In this document: positions 7,161-10,070 of the stretch, in pieces
How positions within the stretch are numbered: position 1 is the first letter of the stretch
How the letters are laid out: every line of letters begins with the position of its first letter
Position numbers and translations under genes: made by a program
Notes under the pieces: model-generated
Databases searched by the model: none
What the model was told of the DNA's origin: nothing
Seen by the model: the letters and a program-made list of their open reading frames with translations, nothing else
NCBI GenBank assembly: GCA_022703645.1
Contig: JAKLDG010000001.1
Span: 338,814 to 402,813, forward strand
DNA: 64,000 nucleotides
Source: Patescibacteria group bacterium
GTDB taxonomy: Bacteria; Patescibacteriota; JACPGU01
Reading direction: 5' to 3'

Positions 7161-10070
7161 CTATCTCACAAAATTTACCAATCGATTTTTGACGTAAATT
7201 ATTTTTTTATAGTTTGTTGAAATTTCCTTGAATTTCTCCGTATCTTGAATGACTTTCAATGCGTCTTCCTCGCTCGCATCAAAAGGCATCAGAATATTAC
7301 CGCGGTGTTTGCCGTTTTCTTGAATTACTATTTCAATCATATCTTCTTTTATTTTTTCCGGGTCGTGTTTTGGCCAAGTAAATTTTCCGCTAAAAATACT
7401 TTCTTCAAATCCGAATTGTTGCCAGATTTCCTCCGCGATATGAGGGCAAATAGGAGATAGAAGCAGAATCAAAACCATGTATGGCTGCGGGTAATTATAT
7501 AACAGATCTTTTTTGCTAATTAAAAAGTTGGTAAATTCCATTAATGTCGATACGAGAGTGTTTAAGTGCAGGCGATCCAGATCTTCATTAAATTTCTTGA
7601 TTGTTTTATGTGTCATCACTTCCAGTTCCGTTTCTCCAATTTCAAAAGAATCGGTAATTATTTTTGCCGGATCTTTTTCTTCAACCCGAGGCGCAATTTC
7701 TTGGCCAAGATTCCAGACTTTATTTAGAAATCTCGAAACACCCTCTATTCCTTGGCTGCTCCATGCCGCATCTTGCTCGAAAGGACCGATGAACATTTCA
7801 TAAGCGCGGGCGGTATCAGCACCGTATTTTTCGACAATTTCATTCGGGTTTACTACATTTCCAAGGGATTTACTCATCTTTTTCCCATCTTCTGCTAATA
7901 TCATTCCATGATTAATTCTTTTGGCATAAGGCTCAGAAGTTGGCACAAGCCCAAGATCATGAAAGAAAATATTCCAAAATCTAGAATAAAGCAGATGAAG
8001 CGTGGTATGTTCCGGTCCGCCCTCGTAAATATCCACCGGCATCCAATATTTCAACTTTTCAAAATCAGCGAACTGTTTGTCATTATGAGGATCGATGTAG
8101 CGCAAGAAATACCATGACGAACCTGCCCAGTTCGGCATAGTATCTGTCTCTCTTACAGCAGGTCCATTGCACTTTGGGCAAGTCGTATTTACCCAGTCTG
8201 TAATCTTTGCAAGAGGGGATTGCCCGTCCTCGGTTGGTTCGTAATTTTCCACTTCAGGCAATAGCACAGGCAATTGATCTTCCGGTACAGCAACTTCACC
8301 GCAATTAGGACAATATACAATTGGGATAGGCTCGCCCCAATAATGTTGGCGTGAAAATATCCAGTCGCGCAGATGGTAGGTGGTTATAAAATCACCAAGC
8401 TTCTCATCTTTTAATTTTTGGGTAATCTTTTTTCGAGCTTCCTCAGAGCTTAATCCGGTAAAATCTTGCGAATTGATTAGTACACCATCTCTGGTATACG
8501 CCGGGATTTTCGCGCTCATTTTTTCCTGCCAGATGCCAACCTCGGCATGCGTCATATTAGCATAATTCAATTGCGATTCATCAAGCCAAATCACATCGTG
8601 GTCATCTTTTTCTTTTTGCGAAATATCTTCTTGTGTGTGGTCGACTAATTCAAATAGCACAGCAGTGGTATAAGAAATTCGATTTAAATCTTTGTGATTA
8701 GCAAAATACTCGGTTCGCGTTTGACCGAAAAGAACCCTGTCTAATTTTAAGTTTGTAAACCCAGTTTCTTCGGCAACTTCTCTTTTTGCAGCAGTTACCA
8801 CGTCTTCGCCTTCTTCAATGCCACCCATTGGAAAAGTCGTCCAATCAAAGTTTTTCCATTTAAGTCCAAGATATTTTCCAGTTTTTGGATCGCGAACTAT
8901 GGCATGAATATTTTTTCTTTCAACGGTCTTTTTACCCTCAACTGGCGGGTTTCTTTCATCAATAATATTTGGTACGACTACTTCTTCGATTTTAATTCCA
9001 TATTTAACGGCAAAAGCATAGTCGCGTGTATCGTGAGCGGGAACTGCCATGATAGCGCCTGTACCATAATCTGCAAGCACATAATCAGCAACCCAGACCT
9101 CTACTTTGCGTCCATTTATAGGGTTTATAGCAGTAATACCTTCTAATTTTACGCCCGTCTTTTCCTTATCCTCAACCATTCTTTCAATATTTGACTTTTT
9201 CTTTGATTCATTAATGTATTCCTTGACCTCTTCTAAATTCGAGATTCTATCTTCTAAATTCTTTATGTATCCCGATTCCGGTGCCAAGACAATATATGTA
9301 CAACCAAACAACGTGTCTACCCTAGTAGTGAAAACCTTTATACTAGATTCTAAATTCTTTATTCTAAATTCTATTTCGCTTCCTTCAGATTTTCCTATCC
9401 AGTTTTCCTGCATGAGTTTTACTCTTTCCGGATAATCAACATTTTTTAGCCCTTCGAGTAACTTATCTGCATAAGCTGTAATACGCAACATCCATTGATC
9501 AAGTTCTTTTTTACTTGCGGCAGTTCCGCATCTTTCACATTTTTCATCGATTACTTCTTCATTGGCTAGCCCTATTTTGCAGCTTGGACACCAGTTAATC
9601 GCCATTTTCTTTTTGTAAGCAAGGCCATTTTCATAAAATTTTAGAAAAAACCACTGTGTCCATTCGTAATAAGCCGGATCAGTAGTATCGATTTCGCGAG
9701 ACCAATCAAAAGAATAACCAAGACTTTTTTGTTGTTTCGTAAAATTTGCAATGTTTTGAGCGGTAGCAACCGACGGGTGGATTTTATGCTTTATTGCGTA
9801 GTTTTCAGTGGGCAGACCAAAAGCGTCCCATCCAACCGGAAGCATCACGTTGTAACCCTCGAGCCTTTTCTTGCGCGCAATAATATCAGAAGTAGTCTGA
9901 CCTCGAAGATGCCCCATATGCAGACCATCTCCGGATGGATAATTGAACTCAAACAACATATAGAACTTTGGTTTTTTATCAAAGTCTTTCGCATGATATA
10001 GATCGGGAATCTTTTCCCAGATATCCTGCCATTTTTTTTCGATTTCGTGAGGATTGTAGTTGGTTGACAT
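7161..10070 (-). CDS. leuS: Leucyl-tRNA synthetase carrying an inserted Nudix domain
   Basis: HIGH-type motif (HMGH), KMSKS, CP1 editing motifs TTRVDTLFG and [12 protein letters not shown], and [18 protein letters not shown]. Confidence 0.95.
   Translation of the reverse strand: [969 protein letters not shown]
8517..8924 (-). other. Nudix hydrolase domain inserted in LeuRS (approx. residues 383-518)
   Basis: Perfect Nudix box [23 protein letters not shown], flanked on both sides by canonical LeuRS sequence. Confidence 0.8.

Follow-up and report, generated by a model that had tools for sequence, protein, structure and literature searches.

The window analysed here is a stretch of 64,000 nucleotides from a Patescibacteria group bacterium (contig JAKLDG010000001.1, positions 338,814 to 402,813), and the subject is its gene for leucyl-tRNA synthetase (LeuRS), which carries a complete Nudix domain within the editing domain of the enzyme. 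The gene, leuS, is a single uninterrupted open reading frame (ORF) at positions 7161..10070 on the minus strand, the strand on which all features of the gene described below are read. It encodes a bacterial-type LeuRS of 969 amino acids (aa), NCBI HRY60336.1, whose source is a Patescibacteria metagenome-assembled genome (MAG). The database name of the protein is merely 'class I tRNA ligase family protein'.

A Nudix domain within the CP1 editing domain

Which parts of an ordinary synthetase are present in the 969-aa protein? In the NCBIfam scan, the model for bacterial LeuRS (TIGR00396, leuS_bact) scores 972.5 bits against a cutoff of 548.4, with two match stretches split at aa 372. Pfam recognises the class I catalytic domain, the LeuRS editing domain PF13603, a NUDIX domain (PF00293) and the anticodon-binding domain. 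The sequence motifs were compared across 115 carriers of the insert, the window protein included. The HIGH motif reads HMGH (aa 51-54; 9909..9920), and H51, G53 and H54 are invariant in 115/115 carriers; in the KMSKS motif (aa 731-735; 7866..7880), K and M are each kept in 114/115 and the S and K that follow in 115/115. The N-terminal part of the CP1 editing domain lies at aa 222-365 (8976..9407), where PF13603 matches aa 222-371 with its profile positions 1-146 of 185. The C-terminal part, at aa 524-565 (8376..8501), corresponds to Thermus thermophilus LeuRS from residue 376 onward, PF13603 being present in two stretches. The editing motifs TTRVDT (aa 248-253) and GTG...D347..D350 (aa 336-350 segment) are invariant or nearly so among the carriers. 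An earlier note on this DNA, made from the letters alone, had held that the synthetase and editing motifs are intact and that the gene is not in decay, and both claims stand.

The leucine-specific domain that precedes KMSKS in T. thermophilus (about 55 aa; residues 581-636) is absent from the window LeuRS, where aa 727 and 731 (7878-7892) align to T. thermophilus 580 and 637. Relatives from the candidate phyla radiation (CPR) are also without it; the leucine-specific domain is a variable feature and no requirement for membership of the LeuRS family. An AlphaFold 2 (AF2) model of the full-length protein, built from an 80-sequence alignment, has a mean predicted local distance difference test score (pLDDT) of 90.7 and a predicted template modelling score (pTM) of 0.80, and it matches E. 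coli LeuRS-tRNA complexes (5omw_A) with a TMt of 0.85.

Where does the Nudix domain begin and end? In the alignment with T. thermophilus LeuRS, aa 4-365 of the window protein correspond to residues 3-362 and aa 524-727 to residues 376-580, so that 158 aa (aa 366-523) replace a CP1 loop of 13; insert-less orthologues have 17-22 aa at the insertion point. Free-standing Nudix proteins of 154-176 aa align across essentially the entire insert (aa 366-521), and a conserved N-terminal leader, P.F[VI]D...P..VER, is common to both. Because of the gap between the aligned flanks and the full-length match to free-standing Nudix proteins, the insert is placed at aa 366-523 (8502..8975), and it is a complete Nudix protein that was inserted, with its N-terminal leader (P..IDxRNPP..GKxxVER) and C-terminal helix. 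The note had set the insert at residues ~383-518 (8517..8924); the core Nudix fold does lie there, but the true insert is wider. Its estimate of about 140 extra residues agrees with the net gain of 140-145 aa, and the segment is no part of ordinary LeuRS. Its statement that the insert comes after the end of CP1 does not hold. The PF13603 profile is broken at position 146 of 185, which places the insert inside CP1: the catalytic Asp is followed by a helix and a strand, and the insert occupies the loop beyond these.

The identity of the insert is clear from its profile matches. PF00293, whose gathering score is 21.1 bits, matches the translation of 8517-8924 with 52 bits (E 9.4e-14) and the full protein at aa 407-506 with 46.9 bits (E 3.6e-12). 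The Nudix box spans aa 416-438 (8757..8825) and includes E422, R430, E431, E434 and E435; the regular-expression match covers 8760-8825 (aa 416-437), to which F438 is added. The box fits G-x5-E-x7-R-E-U-x-E-E-x-G-U exactly, which bears out the report of a complete Nudix domain with a perfect box inside LeuRS. Further downstream lies a subfamily signature, ANHKDLNR (aa 457-464; 8679..8702), in which K460, N463 and R464 are nearly invariant, with an aromatic residue, Y455, just upstream. The fold is confident: an alpha/beta/alpha sandwich with the box on the loop-helix-loop. The GC content of the insert (0.38-0.40) is within the range of the rest of the gene (0.32-0.47). In the full-length AF2 model, every 10-residue block of aa 361-530 has a pLDDT of at least 90; in a model of the insert by itself, the C-terminal helix reaches only 54-77. 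These models suggest an ordered domain docked on CP1 and not a floppy tether.

Could the insert be an artefact, or a domain that has kept its fold and lost its chemistry? Three contigs from independent assemblies (ENA ERZ27257455, JGI 3300009776 and Logan SRR5007146) encode a 969-aa protein of identical sequence, and 210 homologous Nudix copies were found at the same LeuRS site; therefore, chance and misassembly are excluded. An assembly chimera is ruled out by the identical protein and by the same-site insert in relatives, and a pseudogene by the uninterrupted ORF and the invariant LeuRS motifs. An intein or other mobile protein insertion was also considered and rejected: NUDIX is the only domain that Pfam finds between the CP1 halves, with no Hint, intein or homing-endonuclease domain, and the homology of the insert to free-standing Nudix proteins extends from end to end. 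A purely structural, non-catalytic module could account for the 15 of the 210 same-site copies that have a substitution in E422, R430, E431, E434 or E435. However, all five residues are kept in the other 195/210, and the box of the window copy is perfect, so that a structural module or an artefact is scarcely credible.

Distribution, conservation and exchange of the insert

The insert (PF00293) is present at the same site in 114 of the 119 closest LeuRS homologues, which are 45-70% identical to the window protein by best local alignment. The MAGs that encode these homologues are labelled Patescibacteria, Parcubacteria, Paceibacter, Moraniibacteria or Minisyncoccota. In carriers, the insert has a length of 157-162 aa, and 113/115 have a strict Nudix box. 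A one-genome-per-species scan with the single insert as query (16 loci) adds carriers labelled Yanofsky-, Kaiser- and Liptonbacteria and Paceibacteria. Thus, the architecture is not peculiar to the window genome. It is common to hundreds of related uncultivated bacteria, and the Nudix-bearing form is the prevailing LeuRS among the closest homologues (Parcubacteria, Paceibacteria and related CPR groups). On average, the consensus residue is matched by a fraction of 0.65 of the carrier sequences in the insert, by 0.70 and 0.55 in the two parts of CP1 and by 0.77-0.80 in the catalytic core, so that the constraint on the insert is comparable to that on CP1.

What kind of Nudix was inserted? A phmmer search with the insert against 1.84 billion cluster representatives gave 467 matches at E<=1e-3 and 186 at E<=1e-10. 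The best 150 representatives comprise 103 with LeuRS flanks (by BLAST), 4 LeuRS editing-domain fragments (by Pfam), 1 prolyl-tRNA synthetase (ProRS) and a remainder of free-standing proteins of ~160 aa or tandem Nudix proteins, so that about 70% of them lie inside LeuRS. With a hidden Markov model of free-standing homologues plus the window insert, 306 domain copies were pulled from the fetched proteins: 210 at the window site, 25 in a second CP1 loop (near window aa 237), 3 near aa 590, 54 free, 5 in ProRS and 9 in other or unclear contexts.

The metal-binding glutamates E431, E434 and E435 are kept in >98% of the 306 copies, and at the window site in 209/210, 207/210 and 210/210, respectively. 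Window-site copies also keep K460 (209/210), N463 (200/210) and R464 (202/210), as do the free-standing, ProRS and second-site copies. Together with the three glutamates and this K..NR signature, R385, G416, G417, E487 and W495 are nearly invariant across contexts, and residue 455 is Y or F. Two types can be told apart within the subfamily. Type 1, to which the window insert belongs, has the canonical box and AAHKxxNR. Type 2 has Q in place of E422 in the box, a shifted arginine ('AARAE') and FHxPKxxNR; it is typical of the free-standing proteins and of many, not all, second-site copies. The subfamily is a small one of CPR bacteria and a few ProRS with relatives labelled Nano- or Woesearchaeota, and most of its members are inside aminoacyl-tRNA synthetases.

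Nudix-LeuRS proteins are plentiful in public databases under generic or wrong names, and it is their architecture that makes annotation errors recur. Two 157-aa Nudix proteins (P0003 and P0004) are called 'leuS', and a 1330-aa LeuRS is called 'RdgB/HAM1 family non-canonical purine NTP pyrophosphatase'. In a check for split genes, P0003 and P0004, which are free-standing homologues and owe the name 'leuS' to NCBI, were found not to adjoin leuS. The gene contexts of three other free-standing homologues, P0007, P0022 and P0014, contain no synthetase.

Is the synthetase dependent on its insert? The insert-less LeuRS proteins P0053 and P0073 are encoded in loci syntenic with the window, with a methyltransferase gene upstream of leuS in both; downstream of leuS, the P0053 contig shares with the window rpmF, a NusB-Nudix gene and RNase III. 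LeuRS can therefore perform its essential function without the Nudix. The module can be lost or replaced while the LeuRS core remains unchanged.

Sliding-window identities indicate that the parts of the protein have different closest relatives. The catalytic core of the window LeuRS is 75-90% identical to those of P0027, P0028, P0029 and P0053. By contrast, in the Nudix segment (aa ~341-520) identity to P0027 and P0028 is only 30-60%, and L007-L010 and P0114, with cores at only 40-65% identity to that of the window LeuRS, reach 70-88%. In P0029 and P0053 the entire CP1 is divergent (17-55% identity). This pattern suggests that CP1 and Nudix modules have been exchanged by recombination among CPR lineages, in which case the apparent loss of the Nudix would be a replacement of CP1. 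The region in which the similarity of CP1 and Nudix disagrees with that of the catalytic core extends over aa 221-560 (8391-9410). Precise deletion of the Nudix was rejected as the main route to insert-less relatives; the divergence of the whole CP1 points to replacement of the module.

Candidate substrates and roles of the insert

It is probable, at roughly 0.7, that the insert works as an active Nudix pyrophosphohydrolase, an autonomous module within a LeuRS that is itself functional. The protein would then be bifunctional: a bacterial-type LeuRS in which the sites for aminoacylation and for CP1 post-transfer editing are both intact, and in which a surface loop of CP1 carries a complete Nudix pyrophosphohydrolase that folds independently. 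The Nudix would be a Mg2+-dependent hydrolase and would provide a separate third catalytic site with no part in the editing mechanism. Its substrate may be a nucleoside or dinucleoside polyphosphate, the first guess being a compound of the diadenosine tetraphosphate (Ap4A) or ApnA type and the second a non-canonical nucleoside triphosphate (NTP). Embedding in an essential, constitutively expressed synthetase could secure the expression of the Nudix in a minimal genome, and possibly its proximity to the substrate.

Several points weigh against this reading. Both the activity of the Nudix and its substrate are inferred. The NCBIfam scan returned no characterised Nudix subfamily model at its cutoff, and the best structural neighbour, the E. 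faecalis MutT/nudix protein 2azw, is without an annotated function; for these two reasons the assignment of a substrate is weak. Moreover, the window genome already has a second, different Nudix, in a NusB-Nudix fusion. Related LeuRS proteins carry Ham1/ITPase, HAD and alpha/beta serine hydrolase inserts with no obvious link to aminoacylation, and the free-standing type-2 homologue P0007 sits in a cluster of house-cleaning genes (L005, 1713-12375).

What might the substrate be? The models of characterised families score far below their cutoffs: 28.5 bits against 116 for the best of the RppH/NudH models (PRK00714.x), with a match to the box region only, 19.2 against 97.9 for the MutT 8-oxo-dGTPase model TIGR00586, and 26.1 against 169 for NudE. 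The first two do not admit the insert as a member. Sequence and profile searches of the PDB with the insert gave only weak matches at E ~1e-5 (NudB, lupin Ap4A hydrolase, NudI and ADPRase), and the nearest solved folds include Ap4A/Ap6A hydrolases, RppH, DIPP and NudI. On sequence grounds, the insert is a bona fide Nudix whose specificity is not assignable to a characterised subfamily. Residue 455, 17-18 aa past the box, is Y or F in 206/210 copies. An aromatic residue (Tyr) some 16-18 aa downstream of the box is reportedly a feature of ApnA hydrolases; residue 455 is compatible with this feature, which is unspecific. The basic residues R385, K460 and R464, the aromatic residue 455 and the polyphosphate-hydrolase folds mildly favour a (di)nucleoside polyphosphate substrate, a fit that falls short of proof. 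Candidate substrates would rank in the order of an Ap4A-type by-product, a non-canonical NTP, RNA 5' ends and, as an unlikely last, an aminoacyl-adenylate. An ApnA-type by-product of aminoacyl-adenylate chemistry, the first of these, is itself a tentative choice with the odds against it.

It has to be asked whether the Nudix acts on RNA, either as an RppH-like 5'-pyrophosphohydrolase or decapping enzyme or on the tRNA-Leu bound by LeuRS. RppH is among the nearest folds. However, its family models are matched in the box region only and at about a quarter of the required score, and the structural neighbours are equally often hydrolases of ApnA, NTP or inositol pyrophosphates. Mature tRNA has a 5'-monophosphate and, therefore, offers no obvious substrate. 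An RNA substrate is unlikely.

The subfamily recurs with other synthetases. It is found in a small group of archaeal-type ProRS (P0250, at L029 2906-4837, and P0296-P0299), where the Nudix separates the anticodon-binding domain from the C-terminal zinc domain. A further 115 listed ProRS relatives are without this Nudix; those with a source label are called Nano- or Woesearchaeota (DPANN-type archaea). The genes for the free-standing type-1 proteins P0025 (L024 3506-3976) and P0024 (L027 818-1291) have the orientation of thrS and lie ~100 nt upstream of it. P0024 and P0025 are close relatives, so that their linkage to thrS counts as one evolutionary observation. In L024, thrS is followed by miaA and an HD_4 gene precedes the Nudix; the same genome has, at L024 9285-9976, an ORF cut by the end of the locus that joins NUDIX to RNase H (PF00075/PF13456).

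These associations lead to the proposal that the subfamily is a dedicated partner of synthetases, a third site that would destroy adenylate-derived products in cis (Ap4A/Ap3A or a mis-activated intermediate) and that arose independently in ProRS and in the thrS operon. This proposal is speculative and, on balance, rather improbable.

Alternatively, the insert might be a house-cleaning enzyme, a pyrophosphatase of non-canonical (d)NTP or of nucleoside diphosphates linked to another moiety (NDP-X), that is uncoupled from leucylation and for which LeuRS serves as a tolerant scaffold securing expression. The architecture and the activity would be the same as in the preferred reading of an active Nudix module in a functional LeuRS; only the coupling and the substrate differ. 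In variants of 1100-1336 aa among related CPR LeuRS proteins, additional domains occupy different surface loops (near window aa 210-240, 536 and 590). These include second and third Nudix copies (P0143, P0146 and P0150), a Ham1/ITPase (P0193, with six member sequences on several contigs), a HAD phosphatase (P0158) and an alpha/beta Ser_hydrolase (P0082, P0102, P0109 and P0129). Modules of ~121 aa without an identified family are also among the LeuRS inserts, and the list of variants names P0083 and P0037 as well.

The free-standing P0007, for its part, has Ham1, four further Nudix genes, HAD, His_Phos and the same Ser_hydrolase family as the LeuRS inserts as its neighbours. Ham1, Nudix and HAD-type enzymes are classic house-cleaning enzymes of nucleotide metabolism. 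The L005 cluster reads GDPD, Nudix, 2',5'-RNA-ligase-like, Ham1, Nudix, the subfamily Nudix, LDcluster4, Ser_hydrolase, HAD, His_Phos and another Nudix, and its domain families are largely those inserted in LeuRS. Because of the unrelated inserts and the cluster around P0007, LeuRS may be a mere permissive carrier, and the fact that the insert can be lost or swapped also speaks for a passenger. On the other hand, a single small subfamily that lies ~70% in LeuRS and recurs in ProRS and beside thrS is more specific than a generic scaffold predicts. An enzyme uncoupled from leucylation is a serious candidate, although one that we hold less likely than its denial.

The position of the insert in the editing domain raises the question of a role in proofreading, whether by hydrolysis of non-cognate aminoacyl-adenylates (pre-transfer editing) or by nucleotide-binding allosteric control of CP1. 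LeuRS, ProRS and ThrRS, all of which are linked to the subfamily, face near-cognate amino acids, and the high pLDDT of the linkers in the AF2 model suggests rigid docking on CP1. However, all known Nudix substrates contain a pyrophosphate linkage, and known Nudix chemistry is directed at that linkage and not at an acyl-phosphate. Furthermore, Nudix-less orthologues keep the same editing motifs, and further Nudix copies are found in other loops of LeuRS or stand free. A part in proofreading is, thus, very improbable.

LeuRS is among the best-studied enzymes of translation, and its CP1 domain has been validated as a target for drugs, the benzoxaboroles. The usual LeuRS among the closest homologues of the window protein has an additional, apparently active catalytic domain in CP1, and in some relatives there are as many as three Nudix copies, or the Nudix is accompanied by an ITPase, HAD or serine-hydrolase domain. 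Should by-products of the synthetase be the substrate of the Nudix, these proteins would be a natural system in which to test the long-debated question of how aminoacyl-tRNA synthetases and dinucleoside polyphosphates are linked physiologically. Were the Nudix a dedicated partner, LeuRS across much of the CPR would have a form of by-product clearance or quality control that had gone unrecognised. If it is a mere passenger, it would exemplify how minimal genomes consolidate house-cleaning enzymes onto essential genes.

Neighbouring genes and comparison with known systems

The NusB-Nudix gene of the window lies ~1 kb downstream of leuS, at 5307-6152 on the minus strand, past a Y1-transposase-like ORF and rpmF. 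It encodes a fusion of 281 aa (PF01029 and PF00293) with an intact Nudix box, GKVEEGETWQEAAVREIQEETG. Like the Nudix-bearing LeuRS, it joins a protein of the RNA machinery to a Nudix with an intact box, and the fusion is kept in the syntenic P0053 contig. The two differ in that the NusB-Nudix is a C-terminal fusion and the Nudix of LeuRS an internal insertion; the NusB-linked domain is 30% identical to the LeuRS insert and is without the K..NR signature. Between leuS and rpmF lies a 153-aa ORF (6579-7040, minus strand) with a faint match to Y1 transposase (PF01797) and an HUH-like 'HIHLI' motif. The P0053 contig has yceD (PF02620) where the window has this ORF.

How does the Nudix-LeuRS compare with what is already known? 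Full-text literature searches found no description of a Nudix within LeuRS or of any other architecture joining an aminoacyl-tRNA synthetase to a Nudix, in line with the earlier note, which knew of none; nor did a curated model for LeuRS with Nudix turn up in the NCBIfam scan of the window protein. Both components are of known kinds, and synthetases with an extra enzyme domain already exist. The example is the isoleucyl-tRNA synthetase (IleRS) with an N-acetyltransferase domain, for which NCBIfam has its own curated model (NF040702). This is also a class Ia synthetase with an unrelated catalytic domain; its partner is a GNAT domain, whereas in the window LeuRS a Nudix is inserted within CP1.

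Compared with canonical bacterial LeuRS (T. thermophilus 1H3N/2BTE and E. coli 4AQ7/5OMW), the window protein has the same overall fold (TMt 0.80-0.85, E 2e-83), and the class I motifs and CP1 editing residues are likewise intact. The closest counterparts of the insert itself are Nudix proteins of ~157 aa from CPR bacteria (P0001-P0025), which are 31-42% identical to it over the whole alignment and 37-50% by best local alignment and share its leader and K..NR signature. They are mostly paralogous type-2 proteins; only P0024 and P0025 have the type-1 box of the window. Judged by these similarities, genes like P0001-P0025 are the type of gene that was inserted.

Free-standing Nudix proteins of solved structure (2AZW, of no annotated function; the Ap4A/Ap6A hydrolases 3I7U, 1VC8 and 4IJX; RppH, 4S2W; NudI, 3OGA) are only 16-23% identical to the insert. 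The window subfamily differs from characterised Nudix proteins by a signature of its own, with ER in strand 1, [Y/F]xxxHKxxNR, E487 and W495. In contrast to the characterised Nudix hydrolases, which are free-standing, most copies of the window subfamily are embedded in a synthetase.

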